From: Thermoplasmatota archaeon
Lineage (GTDB): Archaea; Thermoplasmatota; E2; JACPAO01; JAHFTW01
NCBI GenBank assembly: GCA_038046725.1
Contig: JBBSVQ010000001.1
Span: forward strand, 187,780 to 251,779
Direction: 5' to 3'
DNA: 64,000 nucleotides
This document shows positions 43,214 through 62,109 of the stretch, one piece after another. The notes below the pieces were generated by a model. It was not told the origin of the DNA and made no database searches. It was given only the letters and a program-made list of their open reading frames with translations. The number at the start of each line of letters is the position of its first letter. The first letter of the stretch is position 1. A program made the position numbers and the translations under genes.

Positions 43214-44232
43214 GGGATTGCACTGAAAATCGGAAGCCATATGTGTTTGAGCGGATTGGCGAATTCGGGGCTGCACGTTGGGCATCAATTGGCACGATTA
43301 CCACAAAAAACGGAAGCAGGAATTCCAGGTCCTTCTTGACGCGATGGACAAGGTCGCCAACTCTGTTGGGCCGCCGAAAGCAGAGCCGAAACCGGCGGGT
43401 TCTCGGGGGAAGGGGCGTCCGCCGTACAGTCCAACTTCAATGTTGAAGGTCAATTTGCTGCGGATCTATCTGAAGTTGAGCTACCGAGACATGGAAGCAC
43501 TCTTGGCCGCCGATGCCGGAATGCGCGACCGCCTCGGACTTGCCAAAACGCCGGGCCAGGACACGATTCACCGCCACGCCGAAACCCTGACGGAAGCCTA
43601 CCTCGTCAAAATCAATCGTGCTCTGTCGGAGCGCCTAAAAAAAACGAGTTTGACGTCTGCGTCGACGCCACCGGTCTTACGATCAACTGGCACGAGGCAC
43701 GTTGGAGCCTTACCCAACCCCAACAGCGGCAAGGCCGCAACTGGCTCAAACTCAACGCGTTAATCGAGGCTGAATCCAAGACGGTTCTCTCCTGGAAATT
43801 CTCCGGGCCGCACGAGCACGACACGAAATTCCTGCCCGGACTCGTTGCGGCCGTCGGTGCACCGATTCGCGAACTCTACGCCGACGCGGGCTATCTCAGC
43901 CAACGCAACTGCATTGCTGCCAGACAAGCCGGTGCCACACCCTTCATTCGGCCCAAGAAAAACACGCGGCAAGCGCCCCCAAAACCCACTGGCCATGACG
44001 TTCGTACCGCATTCCACCAAATGGTCGGCTCCGAGCAAACGGACCGCACCGCCTGGTACACTCGTTACGGCCGTCGCAATAGGATTGAGTCAACGTTTGG
44101 CGCCATCAAACGCCGCTTCGGCGGACGACTCCGCGCCGTCAACCAGGCTATGCGAATCGTCGAAGCCACCCTGAAAATCCTGGTATGGAACCTAACCAGG
44201 ATCAGGTATGGTGAATTTTAGTGCAATCACCC
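43214..44232 (+). mobile_element. IS5-family insertion sequence (about 1.02 kb) with imperfect 17-bp terminal IRs and 8-bp target-site duplication
   Basis: IRL GGGATTGCACTGAAAAT (43214..) versus the reverse complement of IRR, GGTGATTGCACTAAAAT (..44232). Direct repeat CAGACCGA at 43206..43213 and 44233..44240. Confidence 0.75.
43278..44221 (+). CDS. IS5-family DDE transposase, two frames joined by a -1 frameshift at an A8C run
   Basis: Frame A is MGINWHDYHKK...LKVNLLRIYLKLSYRDMEALLAADAGMRDRLGL...ERLKK. Frame B (-1) continues NEFDVCVDATGLTINWHE...YADAGYLSQ...RNRIESTFGAIKRRFG...ILVWNLTRI to 44221. The slippery heptamer A_AAA_AAC lies at about 43637..43645. Confidence 0.75.
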
Positions 44233-44460
44233 AGACCGACCGGGAGCATTTCACTGGGGCATTTGGACTTTATAAGGTGGTTTCGGAATGGAGTCGGACC
44301 TGATAAGAAGGGGATTCTCGTAGTGTGAACTACATGCAAACGACCGTCAAGGTTCAGCGCCGCGATCCCGCGGTGTCCGTGTACCGGGCCAAATTCCGAG
44401 AGGACGTACGCAACCTGCAACGCGTCCGCGAGTGGCTCCTTCGACGAAAGAGTAAGGCCG

Positions 44461-46248: not shown

Positions 46249-46730
46249 CCTGATCCATCAGGTACTACCAATTGGACGCGGCACAGGTATGCCCAGGCCT
46301 TGTCGATTTCTCCCCGAACATGCGGCTTGATCATTGCAATGTGGTCGAGCAATGCATTGCTGGGCATTCCAGGATTTTTCGACAGAACTTGCAGCATGCT
46401 AGTTGCGGCCTCCAATCCAAATGAGCCGAGCTCAATGCCCTGAACTGCGAGAGTAATGCGTGCATCGTTCGCTAATTCTGGTTGGAGTTCCGGTTCTAAT
46501 TCGGGCCAGGCGTAGTACTCGCGCGCAAGGGCAGGACTGTACACGCCGCGAAGATGAGACCCGTAGGAGAAATTGGCTTCCGGATAACCCAGCGCTTTCA
46601 GCAAGAAGGTGGCCTTTTGTGTTAGGAGACGGGATTCAAACGTCTGCTTCCCAAAGACCGCCTTGCTGGCGGCGGCAAGGTGACCCAATATCCCGTCAAG
46701 ATGCAGCGCCACGAGCGAAGGACCTGCCAA
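46224..46730 (-). CDS. Hypothetical protein (168 aa), overlaps the start of the downstream gene by 25 nt
   Basis: MAGPSLVALHLDGILGHLAAASKAVFGKQTFESRLLTQKATFLLKALGYPEANFSYGSHLRGVYSPALAREYYAWPELEPEL.... No domain recognised. Confidence 0.45.
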   Translation of the reverse strand: MAGPSLVALHLDGILGHLAAASKAVFGKQTFESRLLTQKATFLLKALGYPEANFSYGSHLRGVYSPALAREYYAWPELEPELQPELANDARITLAVQGIELGSFGLEAATSMLQVLSKNPGMPSNALLDHIAMIKPHVRGEIDKAWAYLCRVQLVVPDGSGWRTIRPV

Positions 46731-46837
46731 GGGGTTAGTAGAGTTGACGAAGGGATTGTAGCAAAGCCGGAGGCGAGCCGTTCAGACCCATTATCTCTGG
46801 ATGTCGCCGAGCCTACCACTAGATGGCTTGAGAACGT

Positions 46838-47188
46838 CTAGCGCTGCGCGATGCGCGCGGCATGATACTGGACGGTGGTTGATGATACCCCCAATTGGCG
46901 GGCAAGGGCCCGTCGACTCAGAGTCGGATTCGCAGCCAATGCTTCCCGAACCAGTTCACTCGTTTCTTCTACCGGCCTTCGAAGGACCTTGGTTCCCTTG
47001 GATGTCAGGATGGTGCGCACAAGGCGCCCATCGCGCCAGCGCATCGCCAACCCGTCGCGTTCCAAACGTCGCAGGGCCTGATGAGCGCCAGGTTGTGAGA
47101 TACACGCGAACTGGGCATAGTCCAAATCCAGCGCCCCGGGATGGTCTGATAGAAACGCGAGGGCCCTCCGCTGTGCGTCCCCAGCCAC
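46838..47188 (-). CDS. wHTH transcriptional regulator heading the three-gene module
   Basis: ...LRRLERDGLAMRWRDGRLVRTILTSKGTKVL... and a second HTH ...LSRRALARQLGVSSTTVQYHAARI.... Confidence 0.5.
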   Translation of the reverse strand: MAGDAQRRALAFLSDHPGALDLDYAQFACISQPGAHQALRRLERDGLAMRWRDGRLVRTILTSKGTKVLRRPVEETSELVREALAANPTLSRRALARQLGVSSTTVQYHAARIAQR

Positions 47189-47590: not shown

Positions 47591-50500
47591 TCAGTCCGAG
47601 ACCACCGACCACCTGGCGGGGCTTGGTGCCTCGGGCGGCTTGGGGAACAGCGTCAGCCGCCCCGACGGCACCTGCCAAGGCGAGACCCCCCTAAGGGTCC
47701 GGCTATCGGGCGCGCCCTCCACGGCTGCCCCGGCGGGGACTGGAAGGTCGCCCACCCCCAAACGCCACGCGATGAGGTCGGGGACCTGGGCGGCGGCATA
47801 CAGCTTCCATTGCCCGTCCGCCCGGCCGACGGGCCACATGGGCACGTCCCCGCCGAACACGACGCCGAAAGCTGCCGGTGCCCGCCGTGGGCCGACTACG
47901 GAGAAGACCGCATGCTGGAACGTCAGCGATCCTCGCATTCCCGGAGCAGCGCTGCCCTGGAGCGTGTGGCCGTCCTTCTTTGCGACGAACTGGTCGCCAC
48001 TGGCCTGGACGGTCCACCCGGCTGAGCCGAGCGCACGGGCGATGTGCGGCAAGGAGGAAGTCCAAAGTTCTCGGCTGGCGGTGGTGCCGGGGCGGCGGTT
48101 GCTCCACACCTGGGAAAGCGCCCTTTCCTGGACGTTGCGCCGGGCTTCTTGGAGGGCCTGCCAGGGGTCCATGGTGGGCCCCGCATCCTCGCCTAGCCGG
48201 GTCCGCACCTCGTTCCGGATGGCGTCCGCTACAATCTGCGGGCATTCTCCGACGGCCAGCTCGTAGTCCTCGCGGCGGGCCATGAGCCGGCCGTACATCC
48301 GGGCCTCGACGCTGTTGGGATACCAGAGGTTGACAACGTCGACCTGGGGAGCCCTCTGGCCCAAGCGCGCCACACGCCCAATCCGTTGCTCGAGACGGGC
48401 AGGGTTCCAGGGCACGTCCACGTTGATGACGACGCGGGCAGCCTGTAGGTTCAGGCCTTCGCTGGCCGCGTCCGAGCAGAACACCACCTTCGCAAGCCCC
48501 TCTTCCAGAGCTGCGCGGACCGTCTCCTTCGAGGCACGAGTACGCTGGCCGGAGGACGCCACGAAGGCGTCCTGCCCAGTGTACTTGGCGAAGCCGACGT
48601 CGGGGAACCATTCCTCGAAGGCCTGGATGCACCTGTCGACTGTGTCGGTGTAGCGCGAGAAGACCAGCACTTGGTCACGTTCCAAGTACGACGCCAGCAG
48701 CTGGCGGAGCTCCCTCATCTTTGGGTCAGGTTCCTGCTCGTCCGCATGCAGCACGTCGAGGCGTTCAATCAGGTCCTTGATGTAGACGGCCTCGGCCTGC
48801 TTGGCGGTGGCCACTTCGGCAGGGTCGACCGCGGCGCTAGGGGCGGTGCCTTCGAGGCCTGGGTCCTCGTCGGTGTCGTCGTCCTCTTCGTCGAGCCCCG
48901 ACTCGACGCCAGCTGCGATGCTGTCGAGCCGTTGCATCCGCTTGAGCAGGCTGATGCGGGCCGCGTAGAGGCTCGATGCCAGCCTTTGCTGGTAGGAGCA
49001 TCTCGCGAAGCCGAGCGAAAGCGGCCGGTCCGGGTGCGCGGCCTGCTCGACGCGGCCGTAAGCACGAGACAGGTACTCGTCGACGCTGCGGTAGAACTCC
49101 ACGACTCCCGGGTCGACCTTGGCAATCGGAGCATGCAGGCGCCTTTCGGGGAACCGGTAACCGAACTTCTCGAGCACCTTCCTGGTGTTCCTGATCGTCA
49201 GTAGCGAAGCGGGGTGGGCATCGACCAGAAGAGGGTAAACCTCAGGCCAAGCAGCCCTTGCTTTGATCGTCGCCTGGGCATTGGCCGAATCCTGTGACGC
49301 AAGGGTCTTGGCTGTCGTGGTGGCACCGCTTGCCGGCTGCCAGCCGTAGTCCTTGCGCGCTTGGGCAAGCCACTTCAGGCTCCACTTGGCGTCCTCGAGC
49401 GTCGGCAGCGCGGCGCCGAGCGCCAGCACGCGGAGCGAACGTGCGTACTCGCCTTCACCCTTGACCGGGTCGGTCCAGGCCTGCGGAAGGCCAAGGAGGC
49501 GCAGCAGTGCGTGGAACTCGGCCGGTTCCAACTGGACCGGTGTCGCCGTGAGCAGCAGCAGGTGCGGCACCTTGGTCGCGACGGTGTCGAGCGTGCGCCA
49601 CAGCAAGGTCGGGCGCAACGTGCCGTCGAGGTCGCGTCGCACTCGCGCCGCATGGGCTTCGTCGACGACCATGAGGTCTGGCAGATGCGCCCCAGACAGG
49701 AGGTTCCCTCCGTCGCGGCTGCCGCGGACCAACTGCGCTGACACCAGGCGAAGCGCGGGCGAACCTTTGCCCAGCGGGTGGTCGCTCGGCGCCCGGTGGA
49801 AGCGCCCGTCGGGGTCCACGTAGGCCTTGGCCCCGGAATCGTACCGCCAGAAGCTGAGCCCGAAATGGTGCTGCATCTCTTCCTGCCACTGGCGCATCAC
49901 GTTCTTCGGGGCAAGAATCGTGACGCTCGAGACGGCCTTGGTTCGAAGGAGGTGGGCAATCGCAGCGCCGGCCTCCAAGGTCTTGCCGAGGCCGACCTCG
50001 TCTGCCAGCAGGGCGCGGACGGGCCATCTTCCTAAGCAGTCGAGGAAAGCGCGTTCCTGGTGGGGGAACAGGGCCGACGGGCCCAAGTTGAGAGAGCCAA
50101 GCAGCGGGCTCTCGCGGAAGAACCTGTCAAGCACGGAAGTCCTCGGCGAGGCCTTCGACTGGGCCACGGGCTGGTGCTCGGTCTCGCCGAGGGCGGCCAG
50201 CAGGTGGTTCGCAAACTCCTGGTCAAGGACTCGGACCGCAACGTCCTCGCGGCGACCTTGCCAGATCTGCTCGAAGCTGTCCACGCGCTCCCTCGTCTGG
50301 GCGGGTTCCTCCCAGGAACGGAAGACGTTGAGCTCCTCGTAGTTGGTGGCCATCCCTGGCACGGTCTCGTTGGCGCTGCCACTGGCGGCCACGATGTCGC
50401 CGCCGGCGTCGGTGAAGAGCAGCCGCTTGCTGTGGAAGATTCCGGTTCGTCCGTAAGGGACGGCCACACGTACCTGGAGCAGCCCTTCCTTCATCATCCA

Positions 50501-50902
50501 GGCAACGGTCGCGATGCGGTTCCGCGACAATTCGTCACGAAGGGTCGCCACGCTGTCAAGGAGGCGCTGCCCGACGGCCGCCATGATTTCCTCAGGCGGC
50601 GGCGAGCCAGCGGCTTTTGCCAGGTCAGCGGGCACGTCGTGGACGCCCAGGACGAGGCGCATCTTCCCGCGCCTGCGCCACAGCCCTTCGAGGCCATCGG
50701 CGATCGCGACCAGAGCGGTGACATTGAAGAAGCCGGTCAGCCGGTCGTAGGCGACGGCTTCGGCGAGCGCGGGTTGCACCAACCCTTGCAGGAGAACATC
50801 GGCGCGCCCTTCGTAGAAGGAACGGAGGCCCAGGCCGCGTAGCCCTGCCAATGTCTCACCGACCGAGCGCGTCCAGGACTGCGTCGCAGAACGCCTGGTC
50901 AC
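47591..50902 (-). CDS. PLD-family (HKD) nuclease fused to SNF2-family helicase
   Basis: N-terminal HKD motif ...GIFHSKRLLFTDAGGDIVAASGSANET.... SNF2 ATPase with ...LADEVGLGKT..., DEAH box ...LMVVDEAHAARV..., and helicase-C ...LNLQAARVVINVDVPWNPARLEQRIGRVARLGQ.... Confidence 0.85.
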   Translation of the reverse strand: MTRRSATQSWTRSVGETLAGLRGLGLRSFYEGRADVLLQGLVQPALAEAVAYDRLTGFFNVTALVAIADGLEGLWRRRGKMRLVLGVHDVPADLAKAAGSPPPEEIMAAVGQRLLDSVATLRDELSRNRIATVAWMMKEGLLQVRVAVPYGRTGIFHSKRLLFTDAGGDIVAASGSANETVPGMATNYEELNVFRSWEEPAQTRERVDSFEQIWQGRREDVAVRVLDQEFANHLLAALGETEHQPVAQSKASPRTSVLDRFFRESPLLGSLNLGPSALFPHQERAFLDCLGRWPVRALLADEVGLGKTLEAGAAIAHLLRTKAVSSVTILAPKNVMRQWQEEMQHHFGLSFWRYDSGAKAYVDPDGRFHRAPSDHPLGKGSPALRLVSAQLVRGSRDGGNLLSGAHLPDLMVVDEAHAARVRRDLDGTLRPTLLWRTLDTVATKVPHLLLLTATPVQLEPAEFHALLRLLGLPQAWTDPVKGEGEYARSLRVLALGAALPTLEDAKWSLKWLAQARKDYGWQPASGATTTAKTLASQDSANAQATIKARAAWPEVYPLLVDAHPASLLTIRNTRKVLEKFGYRFPERRLHAPIAKVDPGVVEFYRSVDEYLSRAYGRVEQAAHPDRPLSLGFARCSYQQRLASSLYAARISLLKRMQRLDSIAAGVESGLDEEDDDTDEDPGLEGTAPSAAVDPAEVATAKQAEAVYIKDLIERLDVLHADEQEPDPKMRELRQLLASYLERDQVLVFSRYTDTVDRCIQAFEEWFPDVGFAKYTGQDAFVASSGQRTRASKETVRAALEEGLAKVVFCSDAASEGLNLQAARVVINVDVPWNPARLEQRIGRVARLGQRAPQVDVVNLWYPNSVEARMYGRLMARREDYELAVGECPQIVADAIRNEVRTRLGEDAGPTMDPWQALQEARRNVQERALSQVWSNRRPGTTASRELWTSSLPHIARALGSAGWTVQASGDQFVAKKDGHTLQGSAAPGMRGSLTFQHAVFSVVGPRRAPAAFGVVFGGDVPMWPVGRADGQWKLYAAAQVPDLIAWRLGVGDLPVPAGAAVEGAPDSRTLRGVSPWQVPSGRLTLFPKPPEAPSPARWSVVSD

Positions 50903-51665
50903 CGTCCGGCGACTTCCGCTTCACGGCACCGGCGTCCGCGAGCTGCGACAGCAGGTCCGTGAGGAAGCCCAGCTGCGGACCAGAGAACGGCTTGCCCGTG
51001 TTGTTCTCCTGGTACCCGCGCTTCTTCGCGAAGTCGCCCAACGCTCCTCGTGCCTTCGGCGTTAGCACGTTGTACTGGGCGGCCTTCTTTGCCATGTGCC
51101 AGATGGCCTTCGACGGAAGGTTCGCGACGCGCTCCTCCTCGGAGGGACCTGTGATACCCCTGACTGCGGCCAAGGCCGTCAGATGCGGGCTGCGGCCGGC
51201 CGGCATGCCGTCGACAGCTGCCAGCACCTCGCGCAGCTGGGCGGGCTCAAGTCCGATGATGTCGAGCCAGGTCGTCTTCGGCGGTGGAGCGCGGTCCAGG
51301 ATGGCCAGGATCTCCTCGGGTTCGGCCCCCAGCTGCAGGACCGCGTAGACTTCGGCCTCGGTCGCGCCGACCCATTTGGCAGCCTGGTCGATGTCCAGGC
51401 CGGAGACGGTGTACGTCGCAGAAACCCGTTCGAGGTAGCCCTTGAACGGGTTGCTGGGCGACCGCCAGGCCTCGATGAACGCCTCGATGCGGCCACCGGA
51501 GCCAGACCCCGGAAGGGGCGGGAGCGCCGGTGGAGCCGCAAGGAGAGCAGGGGACGCTTTGGGAGGGGCGACCTTCGCTGCGTGCTTGGGCGTGGACCTG
51601 CTGGGCTTCTCCGATTCCCGCTTCGCCTTGGCGGGGGCCTTCTTCTTGCCGAACACGTCACTCAC
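50856..51665 (-). CDS. Hypothetical protein with Lys/Pro-rich N-terminal tail (269 aa)
   Basis: MSDVFGKKKAPAKAKRESEKPSRSTPKHAAKVAPPKA..., then a helical domain. Overlaps the GHKL gene stop by 8 nt and the PLD-SNF2 start by 47 nt, so the start is uncertain. Confidence 0.45.
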   Translation of the reverse strand: MSDVFGKKKAPAKAKRESEKPSRSTPKHAAKVAPPKASPALLAAPPALPPLPGSGSGGRIEAFIEAWRSPSNPFKGYLERVSATYTVSGLDIDQAAKWVGATEAEVYAVLQLGAEPEEILAILDRAPPPKTTWLDIIGLEPAQLREVLAAVDGMPAGRSPHLTALAAVRGITGPSEEERVANLPSKAIWHMAKKAAQYNVLTPKARGALGDFAKKRGYQENNTGKPFSGPQLGFLTDLLSQLADAGAVKRKSPDGDQAFCDAVLDALGR

Positions 51666-53103
51666 CTGCCGCCGCGTTGAGCCACAGGTTGCGGATGCGA
51701 CGGGCCTCGTCCGGAGGGTAGCCCTTTTCCCGTTCGAGGAAAAGCGCGAGCGAGTCGGACATCGCCAGGAACATTAGCAGCTTCTTGTCCTCGATGTACT
51801 TCACGAGCTTCGAGGAGCTGTTCACGACGGCCTGCAGTTCGCTGCCGCGCTCGGACTCGTACATGTAGGACCAGGGCGTGATGCTCTCGCCGAGGTCTTC
51901 CATCGTGTAGGTCAAGGTCAGCGGTCCGTCAGGGAGGTGGACCTTGTTCGCGTCGACGGTGACTTCCTTTCCCTGGTCGACCTGGACGGCAGGCCCCTTC
52001 CCGGCACCGGGCTCCGCAAAGGCCCCGTCGCCCTGCGCTGCCGTGCCGTCGGGCGCCTTGAACATGGAGGAGAGGACCTTGCCTGCGGCCAACGCCTGCT
52101 GCGCCCCTTGGATGGCGCGAGCGAAGCGGGTGCGGTCGCCCCGGCCACGGATCGTCGTGGCGCTGGCCTTCTCGAAGACCTTCATCTTCTCCTTCATGAC
52201 GTCCGTGGCCGCGCGCCACTCTGCGCTCTGCTTGGCGAAACCTTGCTTGTTGAAGTTCACCGGAACGAAGTCCACGTGCATCTCGCCGACGATGCGGGAG
52301 TTCATTGTATGGACGCGGAACCAGTCCTTGTTCCAGGGCTCCACCAGCTGGTTCAGCTTGTAGAGGTTGATCCCGAACTTGTCGTCGTTGTGGGTGATCT
52401 TGTCGAGGCCGACCCAGCCGTGCACCCTCCATTCGCCGCGCGGCCCGCACTTCTCGTCGATCTCGAAGCGTTTGTCCTCGATGAGGCTGTACGCCTTGGG
52501 AAGCACCACGTCGTTGCCCACGCGGAAGACGTCGCCCCGCTCGATGTGGGGCTTGTAGGCGTGGCCCAGCTGTTCCACGACCGCCCCGCGCATCGTGTCG
52601 GGTTGGCGTAGGTTCCGTACCACGATGGCCGTGCCATGCGCCCGGCCTTCGAGGGGACCGTCCTTGTCGGGCTTGCCCGCATGGATCACATGCTTCCACC
52701 GGACGCCGCTCTTCTGCTTGGCCCGCGCGCGCCACTCGTCAAGGTCGAAGGTCACCGAGTATTCGACGTCCTTGCCGTCGGGGCGAGTGTGGATCTCCCA
52801 GATGCGGCCTAGCGAAGCGCAGGCGGTCTTCATGCCAAGGCCGTAGACGCCCTTGCGCCCCTTCCGCGGAAGGAAGTCGTCCATGTTGACGCCGAGCCTG
52901 ACCGCTTCCGTCAGGATGTCCTGCTCCATGCCGGTGCCGTTGTCGACCACGACGATGCGGTCCCTGGCGAGGGTGACGTCCACCTCAATCGGCGTGTCGC
53001 CGACGCGCGCGTCGATGCTGTTGGCGACGAGCTCCACGATGGCCTCGGGGACCTTGAAGTTCGTAGCCCCAATCTTGTCGAGCATCGACTCGTCCGGAGT
53101 CAT
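51658..53103 (-). CDS. GHKL (Bergerat-fold, MORC/MutL/HSP90-like) ATPase
   Basis: N-box ...EAIVELVANSIDARV..., G1 ...IVVVDNGTGM..., G2/G3 ...GVYGLGMKTACASLG.... Start at the internal ATG (MTPDESML). The 103 upstream codons of the ORF are Arg/Cys-rich. Confidence 0.7.
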   Translation of the reverse strand: MTPDESMLDKIGATNFKVPEAIVELVANSIDARVGDTPIEVDVTLARDRIVVVDNGTGMEQDILTEAVRLGVNMDDFLPRKGRKGVYGLGMKTACASLGRIWEIHTRPDGKDVEYSVTFDLDEWRARAKQKSGVRWKHVIHAGKPDKDGPLEGRAHGTAIVVRNLRQPDTMRGAVVEQLGHAYKPHIERGDVFRVGNDVVLPKAYSLIEDKRFEIDEKCGPRGEWRVHGWVGLDKITHNDDKFGINLYKLNQLVEPWNKDWFRVHTMNSRIVGEMHVDFVPVNFNKQGFAKQSAEWRAATDVMKEKMKVFEKASATTIRGRGDRTRFARAIQGAQQALAAGKVLSSMFKAPDGTAAQGDGAFAEPGAGKGPAVQVDQGKEVTVDANKVHLPDGPLTLTYTMEDLGESITPWSYMYESERGSELQAVVNSSSKLVKYIEDKKLLMFLAMSDSLALFLEREKGYPPDEARRIRNLWLNAAAGE

Positions 53104-53243
53104 GTCGATGGAGATGTCCTTGGAATCACGCGGGATTGAAATCGACCACCATGCCCCAGTTACGGAAGCGCCAAGCACTGAACGGCCTTGCTTAAAAGGA
53201 AGCGGTGGGCCGCAATTATGGCAGGTGGGAGGCCGCCGACGGC

Positions 53244-54038
53244 TTACGCGGCAAGCGCCGCCACGTACTGCTCCCGTTGGCTCCAAGGGACCGGCGTGAT
53301 GGCATAGTTGCGCAGGGCCTGCAAGGCAGTGGGCGACGCCGGCTTCTCGATGTCGTTCACAAGAACGTAGGCGTCGGTCTCCTGGGACCGAGCTTCGCGC
53401 GTATCCTGCCAAGAGAAAATCGCCGCTTCGATTGTGTTCTTGTTCGTGCCGTTGAGCGCGCGCAAGGCGCGCTCTGGTGCCTTGGGCGACTTCGGGATGA
53501 TGAAGTCGAAGTGGTGCGTGTACCCGCTGCGGCCCGAAAGGCGCGAATTGTATACGTAGCGGATTTTGTGGCCATCGAGCCAGGCGGCGACGTCCTCGAC
53601 GAACATCTGCGCGACGTTCGGCTGGGCCATGTAGAACATGTCGCCGACGGCGAGCATAGCCTGCACGATGTCGTGCTTCTTCATGGGGAAATCCCCGGCG
53701 CCCGCGAAAACCTCGAGGCGGTGCTTGTCGCTGCGCTTGACCCCGAATCCATTGAGCACTTCATCGAGGACTGCAAGACGGTGCTTGCCGGCCATCTTGA
53801 AGCCAGACATGGCAAGGTCGTTCAGCACGTAGCCGTCGTCGTGGAGGAGGAATCCCTTGTCGACCTTCTGCACGTAGATCTGTAGCATGTCGTTGTGGCG
53901 GTCGAGGTACGGGGTGGTAATCTCCACGTTCGTGCCGATGTCGCGCAAGGCGGTGCTGTCGCGGAGCCATTTCCAGTGCGCGTCGAGCAGCTCCTTGATC
54001 TCCTCGCCCATGCTTGGCGGAGTGATGGGTTTGGCCAT
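53244..54038 (-). CDS. DUF1828/DUF1829-like protein
   Basis: ...WKWLRDSTALRDIGTNVEITTPYLDRHNDMLQIYVQKVDKGFLLHDDGYVLNDLAMSGF... matches my memory of the DUF1828 N-domain pattern. The family assignment is unverified. Confidence 0.45.
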   Translation of the reverse strand: MAKPITPPSMGEEIKELLDAHWKWLRDSTALRDIGTNVEITTPYLDRHNDMLQIYVQKVDKGFLLHDDGYVLNDLAMSGFKMAGKHRLAVLDEVLNGFGVKRSDKHRLEVFAGAGDFPMKKHDIVQAMLAVGDMFYMAQPNVAQMFVEDVAAWLDGHKIRYVYNSRLSGRSGYTHHFDFIIPKSPKAPERALRALNGTNKNTIEAAIFSWQDTREARSQETDAYVLVNDIEKPASPTALQALRNYAITPVPWSQREQYVAALAA

Positions 54039-54476
54039 TCAGACGAACCCCTGCTGGACCGGCAGCTTCCTGATGTTGCAGTAAGAAAGGAACTGCTCCA
54101 GGGTCTTCTGGACGTCGGTGGGGTGGGTGAACTCAGCGGGCAGCGGGTACGCCCATTTGTCGCCGAAGCCTTCGCGGTAGAGGTGCAGGTGCGGCGCGGG
54201 GACGACTTCGCCGTCGGGATTTCGGTGGGGTGCGCTGCCGAAGTCTAGGCGTGCGAGGATGACGGTCTGGCGGGCGCGGTTCTGGTAGGTGCCCTTGAGG
54301 TCGATGTTGGCGCGGCGGACGTCGAGCTGGAACTCCTCTTTCTCGCCCTCGGCGCGCAGGTCAATCTGCTGCAGGGTGCCGGGGTTGGGGAAGCTCAAGA
54401 CGTCCTTCTTGTCCACGGGGAACTTGGCCGCTTTCAGCAGGCGGTCTGCCCATTCCTGGTTCATCGGCGCCTCCAA
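54039..54476 (-). CDS. Hypothetical protein (145 aa), first gene of the minus-strand operon
   Basis: MEAPMNQEWADRLLKAAKFPVDKKDVLSFPNPGTLQQIDLRAEGEKEEFQLDVRRANIDLKGTYQNRARQ.... Its stop is 1 nt from the next gene. Confidence 0.45.
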   Translation of the reverse strand: MEAPMNQEWADRLLKAAKFPVDKKDVLSFPNPGTLQQIDLRAEGEKEEFQLDVRRANIDLKGTYQNRARQTVILARLDFGSAPHRNPDGEVVPAPHLHLYREGFGDKWAYPLPAEFTHPTDVQKTLEQFLSYCNIRKLPVQQGFV

Positions 54477-54645: not shown

Positions 54646-57246
54646 ATGGCCAAGTCGGACCGGAAAGACGTCGAGACCTACGAGCACAAGGCCGCCCAGC
54701 GCCCGAACAACCCACCGGTGGGCCTTGTGACGAAGGACACGGAGGCGCGAGAGAAGCGCCGCACCTACCAATACACCGATAACGTCCACGTCAAGCCCCA
54801 CGACAAACACCAGGACCCTGCCCTGGTCTGGGCGACGAAGGCCGAGCGCACTAGCTTCGAGGTCCCGACTGTCAACCTCCACGTCCATGAGCGCATCGAC
54901 CCGCAGACGATTCTGCGCGCGGTGCGCAAGAAGGGTGCGACCGTACAGCAATCCCTTTTCCAGTCCTCGGACCAGAACCTCCCCCTATCCAAGGCAGTCG
55001 AATTCTACGAGCACGCGCAAGGCTGGTCAAACCGGCTCGTCGCCGGCGACAGCCTGCTGGTGATGAACTCGCTCATCGAGAAAGAAGCGATGGCCGGCAA
55101 GGTCCAGATGGTCTACTTCGACCCGCCTTACGGCATCGAGTACAAGTCGAACGCCCAGCCATTCGTCGACAAGCGCAGCGTTGCCGAAGGCGACAAGGAC
55201 GCCGACTTGGACCAAACGCCGGAGCAGATCAAGGCGTTCCGTGACACCTGGGAGCTCGGGATTCACTCCTACCTCTCGTTCATCCGCGACCGGATGTTGC
55301 TGGCGCGTGAACTCCTGACACCAAGCGGCAGCGTGTTCATCCAGATTAGCGACCAAAACCTCCACCACATCCGCGAGGTGATGGACGAGGTGTTCGGCCC
55401 AGGTTGCTACGTCGTCACGATTCCTTTCAAGAAGAAGGGCAGCCAGCGCTCCGGCTTGCTCCGGCCCGTCAACGACTACTTGATCTGGTATACTCGCAGC
55501 CCCGTTGATTCCGGCGTGCCGAAGTTCCACGCGCTCTTCGAAAAGTGGGCCCTCGACCCGGAAACACTCTCGGAATTCCGTTACGTTGAGCTTCCGGGCG
55601 GCAAAGAAATGCTACTCGGGCACCTGAAACGACCTGACGGGTCGGACGTCGACTATGCAAGTCACCCCGAGCTCCTGATGGCGGACTACCCCAAGGCGCG
55701 CCTCTACCGAGCCAACCCTCTCAAGAGTGGCGGCGTTCGAGCCAACCAGAGCCTGCCGTTCACCTACAAGGGCAAGACGTACGAGCCCGGCCCGGGCAAC
55801 TGTTGGAAACACACAGCTCGAACCGATGATGGAAGCCCAAGCGGAATGGACCGCCTCGCCAAGGCCGGCCGGCTAATCGGAACGAAAACCGACTTGCGCT
55901 ACCGCAACTACCTGGATGACTTCGGTTACAAACCTGTGTCCAACTGGTGGGATGGACTCGGCGGGGCCTCCAACCCAATCTACGTCGTGCAGACCAACAC
56001 GGAAGTCGTGAAGCGCTGCATGCTGATGACGACAGACCCGGGCGACCTGGTAATTGACATCACTTGCGGCTCCGGAACGACGGCTTACGTCGCCGAAGAA
56101 TGGGGCCGTCGCTGGATGACATGCGACACGTCGCGCGTTGCGGTGACGCTTGCCAAGCAACGGTTGATGACTGCGGCTTTCCCGTTTTATCGACTTCGTC
56201 ATCCGGACGAAGGCGTTTCGTCCGGACTTCGCTACAAGCAGGTTGCGCACATCACGTCCTCGACGATTGCGAATGACGACAAACCCGTGATGGAAGACGT
56301 GTACGATGACCCCGAAGTCGACGGGTCCAAGGCGCGCGTTACCGGACCCTTCACTGTCGAAGCCGTGCCGGCGCCTGTCGTTCTGAGTTTGGACGGATCG
56401 CATCAAGGGCTGGCACCCTCGAATGGTCAGGACGTTGCCCGGAGTGGCGAAACGGCACGCGAGGATCAGTGGAGGACGCAGCTCATGCAAACCGGGATTC
56501 GAACGCTGAAGGGACAGGTGGTCCGTTTCACGCGTCTGGAACCCGCTGCGGCCAGTACCTACTTGCACGCGACTGGTGAGACCGCCGAGACACCATCTCG
56601 TCGTGTGGCGGTATCGTTCGGGCCCGAACATCACCCCATGGAACGCAAGCAGGTCGAGTTTGCATGGGAAGAAGCGCGCCAGATGGCCGACCGCCCTCAA
56701 CTCCTTGTCTTCGCGGCGTTCTCGTTTGATGCTGACACGGCGAAGGACATCGATAACGCCAAGCCAGACAAGATGGGCATGACGTTCTGGAAGGTCCAGA
56801 TGAACACGGACCTGCTCACCGAAGACCTCCGTAAGGGGGGCAAGTCCGACGACTCGTTCTTCCTCGTCGGCCAACCCGATGTGGCCTTGGAGCGCATCAA
56901 GGACGGCGAACACAAGGGAAAGGTCCGCGTCGTTGTCCGGGGCTTCGACTACTTCGACGTCCGCAGCAGCAAGCTGGAATCGGGCAACTCTTCACGCATC
57001 GCGGTATGGATGCTCGACCCCGACTACGACGGGCGCAGCGTGTTCCCGCAGCAGGTCTTCTTCCCCATGGCTGCCGACGACGAAGCGTGGGGTAGGCTTG
57101 CGAAGAACCTCAACGGCGAGATTGACTTGGACCGCATCAAGGCCTACTGGGGGAAGGAATCTCTCCCCTTCCAGCCCGGCAAGCGCGTCGCCGTCAAGGT
57201 CGTTGATGACCGTGGCATCGAGAGCATGAAGGTCTTGGACGTGTAG
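54646..57246 (+). CDS. mod: Type III-like R-M modification methyltransferase (N6A/N4C beta-class, DPPY)
   Basis: ...NRLVAGDSLLVMNSLIEKEAMAGKVQMVYFDPPYGIEYKSN... (motif IV), then motif I ...LVIDITCGSGTTAYVAEEWGRRWMTCD.... At 866 aa it carries a C-terminal extension. Confidence 0.8.
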   Translation: MAKSDRKDVETYEHKAAQRPNNPPVGLVTKDTEAREKRRTYQYTDNVHVKPHDKHQDPALVWATKAERTSFEVPTVNLHVHERIDPQTILRAVRKKGATVQQSLFQSSDQNLPLSKAVEFYEHAQGWSNRLVAGDSLLVMNSLIEKEAMAGKVQMVYFDPPYGIEYKSNAQPFVDKRSVAEGDKDADLDQTPEQIKAFRDTWELGIHSYLSFIRDRMLLARELLTPSGSVFIQISDQNLHHIREVMDEVFGPGCYVVTIPFKKKGSQRSGLLRPVNDYLIWYTRSPVDSGVPKFHALFEKWALDPETLSEFRYVELPGGKEMLLGHLKRPDGSDVDYASHPELLMADYPKARLYRANPLKSGGVRANQSLPFTYKGKTYEPGPGNCWKHTARTDDGSPSGMDRLAKAGRLIGTKTDLRYRNYLDDFGYKPVSNWWDGLGGASNPIYVVQTNTEVVKRCMLMTTDPGDLVIDITCGSGTTAYVAEEWGRRWMTCDTSRVAVTLAKQRLMTAAFPFYRLRHPDEGVSSGLRYKQVAHITSSTIANDDKPVMEDVYDDPEVDGSKARVTGPFTVEAVPAPVVLSLDGSHQGLAPSNGQDVARSGETAREDQWRTQLMQTGIRTLKGQVVRFTRLEPAAASTYLHATGETAETPSRRVAVSFGPEHHPMERKQVEFAWEEARQMADRPQLLVFAAFSFDADTAKDIDNAKPDKMGMTFWKVQMNTDLLTEDLRKGGKSDDSFFLVGQPDVALERIKDGEHKGKVRVVVRGFDYFDVRSSKLESGNSSRIAVWMLDPDYDGRSVFPQQVFFPMAADDEAWGRLAKNLNGEIDLDRIKAYWGKESLPFQPGKRVAVKVVDDRGIESMKVLDV

Positions 57247-57248
57247 CG

Positions 57249-57695
57249 ATGGCTCAGGCCATGGTCGAGAGACTAAACGCACAACATTGGTTGCTCATCA
57301 CGAGTCGGGCTTCGTGGGAGCGAATGGAGCAAGCTGGCGCGTGGGCATTCGCAGACAAGAGTCTGAAACGGGCGTCCATGCTTCACCGAGGCACGCAGGG
57401 CGTCGTGTACTGCACCGGCGAGAGCTCCTTCGCAGCGGTTATCGAGTTCACCGGTGAATTCCGCCAGCACGCCCGCTCAACGGTCTTCGGGGCCCTCTAC
57501 CCGCACGCCATGCCGTTCCGCGTCGTCGCCGCCCCTGGCTTCTCACTCCCGATGGCGGCCGTGGTTCAGACCCTCGACTTCATCGGCAAGAAGGATTACT
57601 GGTTCAGCTACCTTCAAGGGCAGGCTCTTCGCCCTTTGTCCCGTGAGGACTTCCACGTTCTGGCTTCTCGGTTGCAGACGAAGGGGGCTCGGTGA
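57249..57695 (+). CDS. EVE/PUA-like (modified-base reader fold) protein between mod and res
   Basis: ...AQHWLLITSRASWERMEQAGAWAFADKSLKRASMLHRGTQGVVYCTGESSFAAVIEFTGEF... matches my memory of EVE/ASCH-type PUA-like domains. Its stop overlaps the res start (TGATG). Confidence 0.45.
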   Translation: MAQAMVERLNAQHWLLITSRASWERMEQAGAWAFADKSLKRASMLHRGTQGVVYCTGESSFAAVIEFTGEFRQHARSTVFGALYPHAMPFRVVAAPGFSLPMAAVVQTLDFIGKKDYWFSYLQGQALRPLSREDFHVLASRLQTKGAR

Positions 57696-60523
57696 TGGTC
57701 GGAGTACCGAAGATTGATCGCCTCATCCAGAACAACCCGTACCGCGAGCCTGCGAGGTACTGGAAGTTCAACGCGACCAGCCGCACCTGGCGCTTGACCG
57801 AGGGACGGCGCGAGGCGGGTTACATGGTGCAGTCGGGCGACCCTGACGACCCCGGCGATTATCGGGCACTACGCCTGGCCAACCAGGTCCGTCCGCGCGT
57901 CAAGGAATGGCGGGCCGCCGGCTACCCAGGCATCACGGGAGTGACTCGGCGACTGCTGGAACACTGGACGGACCCCAACGCCCGGACGTTCCCGTTCTTC
58001 TTCTGCCAACTGGAAGCCATCGAGACGCTTGTCTGGCTCGCGGAAGCCCCGCCGTCCGCCAAGCAGGGCCTCGACTGGGAGACCGACGGCGGCGACTTCG
58101 TGCGCGAGTGCTGCAAGATGGCCACCGGCACGGGCAAGACTATCGTCATGGGCATGGTCATCGCGTGGCACGTACTCAACAAGGTCGCGTACCCCCAAGA
58201 CCCGCGTTTCAGCAAAAACATCCTTGTCGTTGCCCCCGGTCTAACGGTCAAGGAGCGCCTTCAGGTGCTGAAGCACCCCGACGGCATCTACCGGGAATTC
58301 AGCATGATTCCCGGCGCCATGCGCGACCAATTCGCCCAAGGCCGCGTCGTTGTCGAGAACTGGCACACCCTCGCCCGCCGCGAAGAGGTCGGCCCACGCG
58401 TCATGCGCAAGAAGATGGGCGCTGAGTCGGACGAAGCGTACTGCCGCCGCGTCCTGGTAGACATCGCGAAAGCCAGCAATCTCCTCGTCATCAACGACGA
58501 AGCCCACCACGCGTGGCGCGTCGACCCGAAACGCAAGGCCGAGTTCAAAGGGGAAGACAAGGACGAAGCCCAACGCGCCACGGTCTGGATCGACGGCCTC
58601 GACATCATCAACAAGGCCCGCGGCATCCTGAAGTGCTACGACTTCACCGCCACGCCCTTCGCATCAGCGGGCAAGGGAAACCAGGAGAACGTCATCTTCG
58701 AATGGGTCGTCAGCGACTTCGGCTTGAACGACGCAATCGAGAGCGGGCTCGTCAAGACGCCGCGCCTGCCAACTGTGGACAACAGCATCCCGGACGCCGA
58801 GACGTTCCGCAGCAGACTCCTGCACATCTACGGTGAGTCCGAAGTGCAGAAGGACTTGAGTCGGAAGGCCAAGCCAGAGGAACCGCTGCCCCAACTGGTT
58901 CGCAACGCCTACGAACTGATGACCAAGGACTGGGCCAGGACGCGCGACGACTGGGCCAAGGAAGGCCATCCCGTTCCCCCCGTGATGATTACTGTCGCCA
59001 ACACCACATTCACGGGAGCCCGCATTGAGCACGGATTCCGGACCCACGACCTGGGCGTCGAAGCTGCACACGACGAGAAGGGATTGCTCCGCATCGACAG
59101 CAAAATGCTCAAGGACGTCGAAGAGCGCGACGCGGGAGTCTCGCTCGCTTTGGACCTGGACGACGAAGCCGAGTTGACGGCGGATCAGCGCGCAGAGCTG
59201 CTCCGCCGTCAGGTCGACAGCGTGGGCAAGCCCGGCAAGCCCGGCGCCCACATTTTCAACCTCGTCAGCGTCATGATGCTGACCGAAGGCTGGGACTGCC
59301 GCACCGTGACCCACATCATGGGCCTGCGCGCGTTCACTTCCCAGCTGCTCTGCGAGCAGGTCATCGGCCGCGGCTTGCGCCGCACGTCGTACGAGACCGA
59401 GCAGGTCGAGTTCCCCGACGGCCGCAAAGAGCAACTCTTCGCCGCCGAGTACGTCAACGTGTTTGGCATCCCGTTCTCGTTCCTGCCACTCGAATCGGAC
59501 GAGACGGGGACATCCAAGAAGCCACGCCCCACCACGGACATCCACACACTAGACGAGCGAAAGGACCTGGCTATCAAGTGGCCGAACGTGCTCCGCATCG
59601 AGCACCGGTTGAGCCACCAGCTCCGCCTGGACACTGCCAAGGTTCGCCCGTTCAAAATCGACCCCTCGCTCGTGAGCACAGAAGCGCAACTGGCGCCCTT
59701 GATGGACAACCGACCAAACCCTGACCGCGCGACGCTCATTGAGCTGCAGGATTTGGCCGACACGCGCTACCGTCAGCAGGCCATTGTGTTCCGCCAAGCG
59801 AAGAGCCTCTTCGAGAACATGAAGGAAGACTGGAAGGGCAACCCCGCCACCCTCGCATCCCAGACGGTCCGCCTCGTGGAGGAATTCCTGGCCAGCGGCA
59901 AGGTGGACTTCGGCGGCGTCAAGTTCGGCGAAGACGACGTCCGCCGTCGCATCGTCTTGGCACTGAACACGCCCCGAATCGTTTACGCCCTGAAGGACGC
60001 CATCACGCAGCAGTCCAGCGAAGAGTCCCACATCGTCCTCGATGCGACACATCCGGTAGGTTCGACAGAAGACATGCTGCCGTGGGCCACGCGCAAGAAG
60101 TCGCGCGAAACGAAGAAGAGCCACGTCAACCGCGTCGTCCTCGACTCGGCATGGGAGGCTTCGGACGCCTACGTCATCGACCAGTCGAAGCACGTCGAGG
60201 CCTGGGCCAAGAACGACCACCTCGGGTTCGAGATCGCCTACATCGAGATGGGCCGGGTTGCCAGCTATCGCCCCGACTTCCTCGTCCGCCTGACCAACGG
60301 CGTCAACCTGGTACTAGAGACGAAGGGAAAGGAGCGCGACGCCGACCGGACCAAGTGGACGGCCATGGACGCTTGGATTGCGGCCGTCAACCAGCACGGC
60401 GGGTTCGGGCAGTGGGAATTCAGGACGTCGCGACTCCCCGGCGAGGCGAAGGAAATCCTTGCAGAGCTTGCCGCACGTGGTCCCGTCGGACCCGCTTCTG
60501 CAGGCAAGGCACAATCTAGTTAG
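57695..60523 (+). CDS. res: Type III restriction enzyme Res subunit (SF2 helicase + C-terminal endonuclease)
   Basis: Walker A ...KMATGTGKTIVMGMV..., DEAH ...LLVINDEAHHAW..., motif VI ...QVIGRGLRR..., and a C-terminal nuclease-like region ...VVLDSAWEASDAYVIDQSKHVEAWAKNDHLGFEIAY.... Confidence 0.85.
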   Translation: MVGVPKIDRLIQNNPYREPARYWKFNATSRTWRLTEGRREAGYMVQSGDPDDPGDYRALRLANQVRPRVKEWRAAGYPGITGVTRRLLEHWTDPNARTFPFFFCQLEAIETLVWLAEAPPSAKQGLDWETDGGDFVRECCKMATGTGKTIVMGMVIAWHVLNKVAYPQDPRFSKNILVVAPGLTVKERLQVLKHPDGIYREFSMIPGAMRDQFAQGRVVVENWHTLARREEVGPRVMRKKMGAESDEAYCRRVLVDIAKASNLLVINDEAHHAWRVDPKRKAEFKGEDKDEAQRATVWIDGLDIINKARGILKCYDFTATPFASAGKGNQENVIFEWVVSDFGLNDAIESGLVKTPRLPTVDNSIPDAETFRSRLLHIYGESEVQKDLSRKAKPEEPLPQLVRNAYELMTKDWARTRDDWAKEGHPVPPVMITVANTTFTGARIEHGFRTHDLGVEAAHDEKGLLRIDSKMLKDVEERDAGVSLALDLDDEAELTADQRAELLRRQVDSVGKPGKPGAHIFNLVSVMMLTEGWDCRTVTHIMGLRAFTSQLLCEQVIGRGLRRTSYETEQVEFPDGRKEQLFAAEYVNVFGIPFSFLPLESDETGTSKKPRPTTDIHTLDERKDLAIKWPNVLRIEHRLSHQLRLDTAKVRPFKIDPSLVSTEAQLAPLMDNRPNPDRATLIELQDLADTRYRQQAIVFRQAKSLFENMKEDWKGNPATLASQTVRLVEEFLASGKVDFGGVKFGEDDVRRRIVLALNTPRIVYALKDAITQQSSEESHIVLDATHPVGSTEDMLPWATRKKSRETKKSHVNRVVLDSAWEASDAYVIDQSKHVEAWAKNDHLGFEIAYIEMGRVASYRPDFLVRLTNGVNLVLETKGKERDADRTKWTAMDAWIAAVNQHGGFGQWEFRTSRLPGEAKEILAELAARGPVGPASAGKAQSS

Positions 60524-60546: not shown

Positions 60547-62109
60547 GTGGCGAAGGTCGTCGGTGGGCGGGTGGTCGGGCTTTTCGGCCGCCTTTCGCTG
60601 TCCTGGACGTTCAACGAGCAAGGGCTGGCCGTCCTTCACGGCCCCAACGGCTCAGGGAAGTCGACGTTCCTCCGAATCCTCGAGGCCACGTTCAACCGCC
60701 AGATGGAGGCGCTTTCGATGCTGCCATTCAGGGCGGTCGAGGTGGACTTCGACGACGGGCGCCGCCTGCGCATCCTGGACCGTGCGTTCCTGAACGCTGA
60801 GGTCCGGATTGACGAGGAAGTCCGCGGCCGCTTCGAGGAGCTTGTCAGTGAGGCTATACAGAAAGACGGGAACATCTCGGATGCCGCTGCCGCAGAACTT
60901 TGGGAGGAGGCCGTTAGAGATGCCGACTGGTACTCCTGGGACGACGCGATGCGCGATCCCCCTCCCCACGGGGCCCGCAGGCCTCTGAAACTCGAGCTGA
61001 TGGGCGCCCCGGCCCGCCAGCGCACGACGATCGCCGGGACATACATCAACGAACCTGGAGAACGGCGGAAGCTACTTCGGCCGGGCATCGTCGAGGCGGC
61101 AAACCGGTACCATAGCCCGGTGCTGGACGAACTGAAGGACTTGGTCTGCACGCGGATCAGCGGACCGGTGGGTTCTGCGACCGACCTCGAGACGTTCCGA
61201 GGAAGCCCGGAGGCCCTTCTGCGGCGCATGAACGCAGAGCTGACCGCCATCAGGCGTTTGTTTGCGCCGCCCTATGGCGTGCAGGTACGGCTTCTCGGCG
61301 AGCAGGAGCGCGCCGACCCGGACGACTTCATTGCAGCCCTTCACGAGACCAAGCGGAATCCGCCGCCCGCGGGCGACGCGCAGATGCCCTGGTACAACAA
61401 ACGGGCAGAAGAGGCCGCAGCCAGGGAACGCGAGTGGGACGAGCTGCAGCGGACATTGGGTTCGAAGCGACAAAACGAATCTGGTGCGCCAAAGCCCTCT
61501 GACCGCCAGGCCTTGTCAAACTCGCCAGGGTTCCCCGACGTGGTCAGCTTCTTCGCGACAATCCCTCCCGGGCACTGGCTCGAACGGGAGCTTGCGGGGG
61601 AACTGGCCTATCGGCTGGCCCAAAGTGCTGAACCGAAGGAGCGCACGGCCTTGGCCGAGCGGCTTCGGGAACTGAGTTTGGTGGTAGACGCGCAGGTCAA
61701 GCCCTACGACCGGTTCGTCTACAGGATCAACGAGTTCCTGGACCAGCGGCGGACCGGCGCTTCAATCCACGTCTCCGGCTTCGACGGGCCGCCGGTCGTC
61801 GGGTTCTGGGCCGGCGAGAACGAGATTCCCGGCGACCGGCTGTCCTCCGGGGAGACATCACTGATCGCAATCGCCCACCGCGTCTCCACCTCGTGCGCAC
61901 GTGCGGCGGAAGGGAAGTACGTCCAGCACATCGTCCTGCTCGACGAGCCAGAGGCCAGTCTTCACCCGACCTGGCAGCGAGGCCTGCTCGACCTTGTCAT
62001 GGGTTTCTTCCACAAGGGCCGCGACTGCCTCGTTGTGGCGACGCACAGTCCGGACGTCGCATCGTCCCACCTCTCCGCCATGCAAGAGGTGCCCGACCCT
62101 GCGGCCTGA
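60547..62109 (+). CDS. ABC-type (AAA_15/21, OLD/AriA-like) ATPase
   Basis: Walker A ...LHGPNGSGKSTFLRILEAT..., a long helical insertion, and C-terminal Walker B/D-loop/H-loop ...IVLLDEPEASLHPTWQRGLLDLV...VVATHSPDV.... Confidence 0.7.
   Translation: MAKVVGGRVVGLFGRLSLSWTFNEQGLAVLHGPNGSGKSTFLRILEATFNRQMEALSMLPFRAVEVDFDDGRRLRILDRAFLNAEVRIDEEVRGRFEELVSEAIQKDGNISDAAAAELWEEAVRDADWYSWDDAMRDPPPHGARRPLKLELMGAPARQRTTIAGTYINEPGERRKLLRPGIVEAANRYHSPVLDELKDLVCTRISGPVGSATDLETFRGSPEALLRRMNAELTAIRRLFAPPYGVQVRLLGEQERADPDDFIAALHETKRNPPPAGDAQMPWYNKRAEEAAAREREWDELQRTLGSKRQNESGAPKPSDRQALSNSPGFPDVVSFFATIPPGHWLERELAGELAYRLAQSAEPKERTALAERLRELSLVVDAQVKPYDRFVYRINEFLDQRRTGASIHVSGFDGPPVVGFWAGENEIPGDRLSSGETSLIAIAHRVSTSCARAAEGKYVQHIVLLDEPEASLHPTWQRGLLDLVMGFFHKGRDCLVVATHSPDVASSHLSAMQEVPDPAA

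Follow-up and report, generated by a model that had tools for sequence, protein, structure and literature searches.

The locus analysed here lies in a window of 64 kb, i.e., the whole stretch of 64,000 nucleotides taken from contig JBBSVQ010000001.1 of a metagenome-assembled genome (MAG) labelled Candidatus Thermoplasmatota archaeon. Three genes are arranged head to tail on the plus strand at positions 54646-60523 and form a cassette of 5.9 kb: a mod gene, a gene for a protein of 148 aa, and a res gene. The order was verified by a check of the open reading frames (ORFs), and all features are listed in Table 1. The outer two genes are predicted to encode the subunits of a Type III restriction-modification (R-M) system, and the protein encoded between them is a predicted EVE/PUA-like domain, which may read base modifications on behalf of the helicase-nuclease encoded by res. 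The initial annotation of the window had described the same arrangement, and direct reading of the sequence showed that its coordinates, lengths and junctions were correct for mod, the 148-aa ORF and res. One detail has to be qualified: the length of 943 aa given for Res is obtained from an in-frame GTG at 57692, while the ATG at 57695 gives 942 aa. The latter start was also used in the NCBI protein call (P0002, 942 aa).

The assignment of the two outer genes was clear. In the Mod translation a DPPY motif ('MVYFDPPYGIEY') precedes the S-adenosylmethionine (AdoMet) motif 'DITCGSGTT', which is the motif order of the beta class. The protein matched PF01555 of Pfam (1.3e-24) as well as the PADLOC model MTase_III PDLC03632 (5.2e-124), in agreement with the annotation as a DPPY beta-class methyltransferase of 866 aa. 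The Res translation contains the helicase motifs 'KMATGTGKT' and 'NDEAHHAW' (DEAH), a PF04851 ResIII domain, and a C-terminal nuclease motif ('PDF...LETKGKE'), and residues 813-911 matched a TnsA-like nuclease. The score against the NCBIfam model NF046055, 'BPTD_3080 family restriction endonuclease', was 994 bits and thus above the cut-off of 800. The annotation of res as a DEAH helicase-nuclease gene was therefore also upheld. Homologues of Res are very frequent, and they form at least 7996 clusters at 90% identity (E<=1e-10) among the 8000 candidates scored. A literature search on 'BPTD_3080' returned nothing. Taken together, a Res of the BPTD_3080 family with a beta-class Mod encoded upstream on the same strand is, judged from the sequence, what is expected of a Type III R-M locus.

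The gene between mod and res has its own start and stop codons, and the reader gene is thus free-standing, as had been proposed. Its TGA stop codon is located at 57693-57695, and the A is shared with the ATG start codon of res (TGATG). This overlap of stop and start indicates that the gene is translationally coupled to res, and this part of the initial annotation was verified as well. The GC content and the GC content at third codon positions (GC3) of the gene are 0.617 and 0.75, compared with 0.607-0.632 and 0.78-0.83 for mod and res. A recent insertion of foreign DNA was considered on the grounds of composition and was rejected, because both values equal those of the two flanking genes.

The 148-aa ORF is a real gene and not a chance ORF of GC-rich DNA, because it has many relatives and a predicted fold of high confidence. 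An exhaustive HMMER search of 1.84 billion protein representatives yielded 107 cluster representatives that match the protein at E<=1e-3, the best non-self match having 47% identity and an E value of 1e-34. Most relatives have a length of about 150 aa and apparently stand alone, and only a few are longer. No match was found in the phage collection, and in the plasmid collection there was a single distant EVE gene from Thermococcus, the context of which was uninformative.

Several standard searches with the single sequence were negative. The protein did not match any Pfam family, neither at E<=0.01 nor at E<=10, it had no match in PADLOC, and a word-indexed protein search found only a shortened version of the protein itself. 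In contrast, the NCBIfam model NF002008 (PRK00809) matched over the full length with 5.6e-8, and a sequence search of the PDB revealed the archaeal UPF0310 proteins PH1033 (1WMM, 2.7e-6) and MJECL36 (2P5D, 1.1e-4), both of which were confirmed as members of the EVE family PF01878. This Pfam family was also matched individually by 60 of the 74 aligned relatives, and the profile of the whole family found 2P5D with 3e-46 and 1WMM with 4e-45. An AlphaFold2 model that was calculated from the family alignment had a mean predicted local distance difference test (pLDDT) value of 92.8 and a predicted template modelling score (pTM) of 0.86. The model has a PUA-like beta-barrel with the beta-alpha-beta-alpha-beta topology of EVE domains. 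Foldseek ranked PH1033 first (template modelling score 0.77-0.80) and MJECL36 next, followed by YTH readers of N6-methyladenine (m6A) and the bacterial EVE proteins Atu2648 and Rpa0253. In a second fold search YTH (m6A) and EVE (5-methylcytosine/5-hydroxymethylcytosine) structures were almost equally near. The conserved aromatic residues W14, W23, W32, F34 and Y54 are retained, and no ligand-bound structure from the UPF0310 branch was among the structure search results. The negative Pfam result was not taken to mean that the protein is not an EVE protein, because NCBIfam, the PDB sequence search, the family profile and two fold searches agree. Homology and predicted fold thus identify the protein as a genuine but divergent EVE/PUA-like domain of the UPF0310 branch, and the suspected resemblance to EVE/PUA-like domains was borne out.

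The deposited annotation contains a shorter version of this gene. It starts at an internal methionine and comprises only the last 105 aa (P0001), so that 57249-57377 is skipped, i.e., the N-terminal 43 residues including the conserved W14, W23 and W32. PH1033 and the family are homologous to the 148-aa reading from residue 13 onwards, and the longer reading is therefore the right one. The shortened call may explain why a Pfam domain is missing from the precomputed annotation of the deposited protein.

The contigs of eleven relatives were examined to see in which surroundings the EVE genes are found. Ten of them, including the five best non-self matches, lie within operons of the type that is called Hma in PADLOC and was renamed 'DUF499-centred BREX-related' (BR) in 2026, with the link to EVE being cited (PMC12839542). 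The five best non-self matches (P0122-P0126, 39-47% identity) are each encoded directly upstream of a gene for a DUF1156 methylase. The most complete of these contexts was that of P0122 (47% identity), with the gene order SNF2/NOV_C helicase, EVE, DUF1156 methylase, DUF499/HEPN ATPase, and overlaps of 4 nt on both sides of the EVE gene. On the short contigs of P0123, P0124 and P0125 a NOV_C domain was found upstream and the N-terminus of a DUF1156 protein downstream, while P0126 has a sacsin-like ATPase upstream and DUF1156 downstream.

A different order was found for P0228, P0235 and P0236, namely DUF499, DUF7680, DUF1156 methylase, EVE, and an SNF2 or PLD-SNF2 helicase, again with overlapping stop and start codons; for P0228 the helicase gene is separated from EVE by two small genes. 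Two further contigs (P0128 and P0231) are cut and contain the EVE-SNF2 end of this order. P0128 is preceded by an incomplete gene that matches N6_N4_Mtase weakly, and P0231 by a fragment of 94 aa without a Pfam match, while the genes downstream of P0231 repeat those of the P0228 operon. In total, six relatives have a helicase-nuclease gene downstream of EVE, and the methylase gene precedes EVE wherever the contig shows it. The operons of P0228, P0235, P0236, P0128 and P0231 thus reveal that methylase, EVE and helicase-nuclease genes follow one another in this order also in an unrelated type of system. In the Hma/BR operons the EVE stop codon overlaps the start of the next gene by 1 or 4 nt, as in the mod-EVE-res cassette. 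The embedding of the relatives in methylase and helicase-nuclease operons with the same kind of overlap speaks for a functional link with enzymes of this kind. The only relative in a different setting was P0241, a more distant member. By homology, the 148-aa protein is of the lineage that normally resides in Hma/BR operons.

Fusion proteins were also detected. In P0242 (327 aa, from a JGI contig of 323,733 bp) residues 2-145 form an EVE domain and residues 195-273 a NOV_C/DUF3883 nuclease-like domain, and NOV_C is the domain that ends the helicases encoded directly upstream of EVE in the contexts of P0122-P0125. A separate observation concerns two near-identical contigs with an EVE-containing Hma/BR operon. 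The DUF1156 methylase is intact in L085 (941 aa), in contrast to L084, where fragments of 42 and 412 aa were found, which suggests either a disrupted methylase or a difference in assembly or gene calling.

The mod-res junction was compared in 80 genome loci that were anchored on Res, 71 of which have an orthologous Mod encoded upstream on the same strand. The two genes abut or are separated by no more than 31 nt in 25 of the 71 loci. In three loci the spacing is 160-190 bp and has hardly any or no coding potential (one ORF of 63 aa on the opposite strand), and in the remaining 43 the gap ranges from 350 bp to 4.7 kb. Pfam searches with representative ORFs showed that these gaps contain very different genes: AAA_15/AAA_21 ATPases with partners, TIR proteins of the CAP12/Pycsar type, MNT/HepT pairs, PIN toxins with small partners, Uma2 nucleases, an IrrE-like peptidase together with DUF4411, HEPN, Schlafen AlbA_2, DUF5131, DUF3800 and Fic proteins. 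Insertion sequence (IS) elements are also present, as judged from the translations. In this Type III family the space between mod and res is therefore an insertion hot spot for unrelated cargo of the defence and toxin-antitoxin kinds. No description of such a hot spot was found in the literature searched.

The 80 loci also contain one EVE domain. A tblastn search with the EVE protein had no match in any of these loci, and the domain was detected with the family hidden Markov model (HMM) in six-frame ORFs. It is part of a 393-aa protein of a Nitrospiraceae MAG (locus L017), which is encoded on the same strand as an orthologous Type III mod gene and 280 bp ahead of it. An N-terminal UPF0310-like EVE domain is followed by a C-terminal PD-(D/E)xK-like region with a 'D...EVEH' motif, and this predicted architecture is of the Type IV kind. 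EVE in a Type III operon is thus rare.

The best explanation of these results, held with moderate confidence, is that an EVE reader was captured from a system of the Hma/BR type and now acts in trans for the Type III helicase-nuclease, as a sensor of base modifications. The EVE copy occupies the equivalent position in the Type III operon, with the methylase gene before it and the helicase-nuclease gene behind it, and it is co-transcribed with the operon and translationally coupled to res. The protein would then be produced at a constant ratio to Res and may dock on the Mod-Res complex. It would read a base modification, probably by flipping the base into a pocket like other EVE, SRA and YTH domains, and the reading would direct or license the helicase-nuclease. 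The most likely effect would be an attack also on DNA whose phage-type modifications otherwise hide it from Mod-dependent recognition, and methylation by Mod would still protect the host. Since an EVE domain does not bring a catalytic effector with it, it needs a partner. The two fusions, EVE with NOV_C in P0242 and EVE with a PD-(D/E)xK-like region upstream of a Type III mod gene in L017, also speak for this explanation, as do the base composition shared with mod and res and the role predicted in 2020 for stand-alone EVE proteins with Type I and COG1743-DUF499-SNF2 systems (PMC7641849).

Several results weigh against it. No EVE gene was found at the mod-res junction of any of the 71 sampled orthologous operons, neither by tblastn nor with the family HMM on all six-frame ORFs, and in the nearest relative of Res (54% identity) mod abuts res without an insert. 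The arrangement mod-EVE-res is thus not shared by orthologous operons, a result that the initial annotation would have read as the sign of an incidental insertion; it was seen once, in a single MAG. Because the orthologous operons lack EVE, Res and Mod of this family work without it, and since the junction attracts insertions in general, the position of the EVE gene alone proves little. In addition, the 148-aa protein remains below the threshold of the Pfam EVE family (PF01878), and at two positions that are well conserved in the family its residues differ from the consensus (GD to GT at 48-49 and WG to WF at 117-118). Of the proposal that a reader directs or gates the Type III enzyme, the fold, the coupling and the occurrence of relatives in methylase/helicase-nuclease operons thus stand, while the gene is missing from all 71 orthologous junctions that were sampled.

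On the basis of the hot spot, the EVE gene could be incidental cargo, i.e., a passenger that is expressed with the operon and does not act via Mod or Res. As a variant, it may be the remnant of a dismantled Hma/BR system, or it may serve the PLD-SNF2 helicase that is encoded upstream in the window. The gaps of at least 350 bp in 43 of 71 orthologous operons, with unrelated genes inside, speak for this explanation, none of them contains an EVE gene, and the nearest Res relative has no insert at all. The variant gains from the PLD-SNF2 helicase of the window, which is homologous over its full length to those encoded after EVE in Hma/BR operons, but its gene belongs to another, oppositely oriented operon, and both DUF499 and DUF1156 are absent from the window. 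A mere passenger is also hard to reconcile with an insertion that is exact to the nucleotide and coupled to res, with a composition indistinguishable from that of the operon, with the position of relatives in the same methylase/helicase-nuclease slot (10 of 11 examined), and with the absence of effector activity from an EVE domain alone. Cargo is regarded as rather unlikely.

Two further explanations assign other roles to the EVE protein. It might recognise the system's own mark, the N6-methyladenine made by Mod, as YTH domains do, and either shield methylated DNA from Res or recruit Mod to hemimethylated or newly replicated DNA; it would then help in the recognition of self and would not sense foreign modifications. 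Both partner methylases of the family, the Type III Mod with DPPY and the DUF1156/PF01555 enzymes, are of the N6-adenine kind, which would fit, but self-protection in Type III systems does not require such a factor, and the orthologous operons have no EVE. A reader of the self mark is considered improbable. Alternatively, the protein might bind RNA, for example the operon transcript or modified tRNA or rRNA, and tune the expression of res or act in translation, without any discrimination of DNA. PUA, YTH and ASCH relatives are mostly RNA binders, and the gene is placed where the ratio of Mod to Res translation could be set. The location of relatives in DNA methylase/helicase-nuclease operons in 10 of 11 cases and the existence of fusions to nuclease-like domains argue against such a role, which is considered very unlikely. 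No RNA element was found, although no search aimed at one was made. A capture of the reader from an Hma/BR-type system, followed by its use by the Type III enzyme, thus remains the preferred explanation.

It can be extended to the tentative and rather doubtful generalisation that UPF0310-type EVE proteins are portable, trans-acting specificity subunits for unrelated superfamily 2 (SF2) helicase-nucleases, i.e., the SNF2 enzymes of Hma/BR and the DEAH enzyme Res, and that a Type III enzyme equipped in this way would be bimodal and would also cut hypermodified phage DNA. If this were true, the SNF2 and DEAH motors would have a common docking surface, and R-M systems would have a general route to a Type IV-like reach without gene fusion.

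A complete Hma/BR system elsewhere in the window was considered and rejected, because neither the DUF499 ATPase nor the DUF1156 methylase is present: tblastn with both L085 proteins (E<=1e-3) found nothing in the 64 kb, and the larger neighbouring ORFs that were scanned had no DUF499 or DUF1156 matches in Pfam. The gene for the PLD-SNF2 helicase mentioned above is 6.3 kb away from the EVE gene, and the protein has 28-31% identity to the helicases after EVE in Hma/BR operons (E 1e-94 to 1e-98). This helicase may be left over from the system that was the source of the EVE gene, or represent a variant of that system. The neighbouring genes encode a MORC/sacsin-like GHKL ATPase (HATPase_c_3 and Morc6_S5, weak match to MzaB) and, after it, a protein without a family match. 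The ends of the genes for the ATPase, this protein and the helicase overlap, which suggests one operon of undescribed composition.

Divergent from mod, at a distance of about 170 bp, is a pair of genes that resembles the PADLOC candidate system PDC-M24. The DUF6978 protein matched its component A with 1e-48 and the DUF1828/DUF1829 protein its component B with 4e-91. Downstream of res follow an ATPase gene and a further ORF. It was considered whether these two correspond to the AAA cargo in the mod-res gaps of other loci, and this was rejected because no similarity was found. At the other side, a stretch with a GC content of 0.55-0.59, compared with about 0.65 elsewhere, may be the edge of a defence island.

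Table 1. Features of the mod-EVE-res locus, its neighbourhood and the compared loci. Positions refer to the 64-kb window; in rows with an L number they refer to that locus or contig.
Feature	Position	Strand	Remarks
mod	54646..57246	+	866 aa from ATG; predicted Type III beta-class N6-adenine DNA methyltransferase, DPPY upstream of FxGxG-type AdoMet motif
EVE/PUA-like (UPF0310-type) gene	57249..57695	+	free-standing, 148 aa; predicted nucleic-acid base reader
res	57692 (GTG) or 57695 (ATG)..60523	+	predicted Type III restriction subunit, SF2 DEAH helicase and C-terminal PD-(D/E)xK nuclease, BPTD_3080 family
mod/EVE junction	57244..57251	+	TAG, 2 nt, ATG (sequence read directly)
EVE/res junction	57692..57697	+	GTGATG, EVE TGA overlaps res start (sequence read directly)
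PLD-SNF2 helicase gene	47591..50902	-	1103 aa
ORF after GHKL ATPase gene	50856..51665	-	269 aa
GHKL ATPase gene	51658..53412	-	MORC/sacsin-like
DUF1828/DUF1829 gene	53244..54038	-	PDC-M24 B
DUF6978 gene	54039..54476	-	PDC-M24 A
ATPase gene downstream of res	60547..62109	+	PtuA/AriA-like, AAA_15/AAA_21; start 24 nt after res
ORF after this ATPase gene	to 63190	+	up to 429 aa, uncertain start, no family match
Low-GC stretch	43000..47000
ORF in low-GC stretch	44461..46248	-	595 aa, no Pfam match
EVE fusion gene, L017	3313..4494	+	393 aa, upstream of mod
DUF1156 methylase gene, L085	5179..8004		941 aa
Example junction insert, L018	6801..7676
Example junction insert, L025	2617..4497
Example junction insert, L035	6643..7068
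Example junction insert, L045	6314..7986
Example junction insert, L056	5510..6184
Example junction insert, L061	6085..7269

Type III enzymes form a defined Mod2Res complex and follow known cleavage rules, and the Type III operon is thus the best-understood biochemical chassis in which a stand-alone EVE protein has now been seen. A characterised stand-alone EVE reader that is tied to an R-M-like system was not found in the literature searched. The compact mod-EVE-res cassette could be cloned to ask what the ligand of the reader is, whether it binds Res, and whether it widens or restrains restriction. Irrespective of the EVE gene, an insertion hot spot in a very large Type III family is useful for the discovery and annotation of defence genes.

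Among the known systems, Type IV modification-dependent enzymes carry the EVE reader in one polypeptide with a nuclease or with McrB (e.g., VcaM4I with EVE-HNH, or EVE-McrB). The sub-family of the EVE protein of the window has such fused relatives, i.e., P0242 and L017, but the reader of the window is a separate polypeptide, and in contrast to Type IV systems, which have no protective methylase, its own Mod is encoded directly upstream. PH1033 (1WMM) and MJECL36 (2P5D) are archaeal stand-alone EVE domains like the 148-aa protein, yet the latter has only about 20-23% identity to them and, unlike them, misses the Pfam EVE threshold.

Stand-alone EVE proteins in the neighbourhood of methylases have been described before. 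Bell, Wolf and Koonin (BMC Biol 2020) reported a 'recurrent partnership' in archaea of a stand-alone EVE protein with a system of COG1743 methylase, DUF499 protein and SWI2-SNF2-nuclease, as well as an association of Type I R-M operons with stand-alone proteins of the EVE and ASCH kinds, and they predicted that such systems restrict unmodified DNA via a route defined by the methylase and modified DNA via the EVE reader (PMC7641849). The phrase 'Type III' is absent from that paper, and no description of an EVE gene inside a Type III operon was found in the literature searched, which included a general review and a screen of fused enzymes. Of the claim that the locus has a free-standing reader with a dual logic for modified and unmodified DNA, the free-standing reader is thus confirmed, but the idea is not new, because the same logic was proposed in 2020 (PMC7641849). 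A free-standing EVE gene within a methylase and helicase-nuclease operon has already been described, and what appears to be new is its occurrence in a Type III operon, in one metagenomic instance.

The locus shares with the Type I-associated EVE and ASCH proteins, which are mostly archaeal (PMC7641849), that a free-standing PUA-like reader is encoded in a methylation-protected R-M operon, and it differs from them in that the operon is a Type III mod-res operon without HsdS. A precedent for a gene that is embedded in an R-M operon and whose product works through the R-M complex is PrrC in the Type IC EcoprrI locus (PMC12707154). PrrC, an anticodon nuclease, detects that the R-M enzyme is inhibited, in contrast to the EVE protein, which has no catalytic domain. 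The closest likeness is to the stand-alone EVE proteins of Hma/BR systems, which are of the same lineage, also have about 150 aa, are free-standing, occupy a slot beside a methylase and a helicase-nuclease gene, and have the overlap of stop and start codons on the downstream side. The window differs from these systems in that the DUF499 ATPase, DUF7680 and the DUF1156 methylase are absent and the SNF2 helicase-nuclease homologue is encoded in another operon on the opposite strand; here the partners of the EVE gene are those of a PF01555 Type III Mod and a DEAH Res of the BPTD_3080 family.

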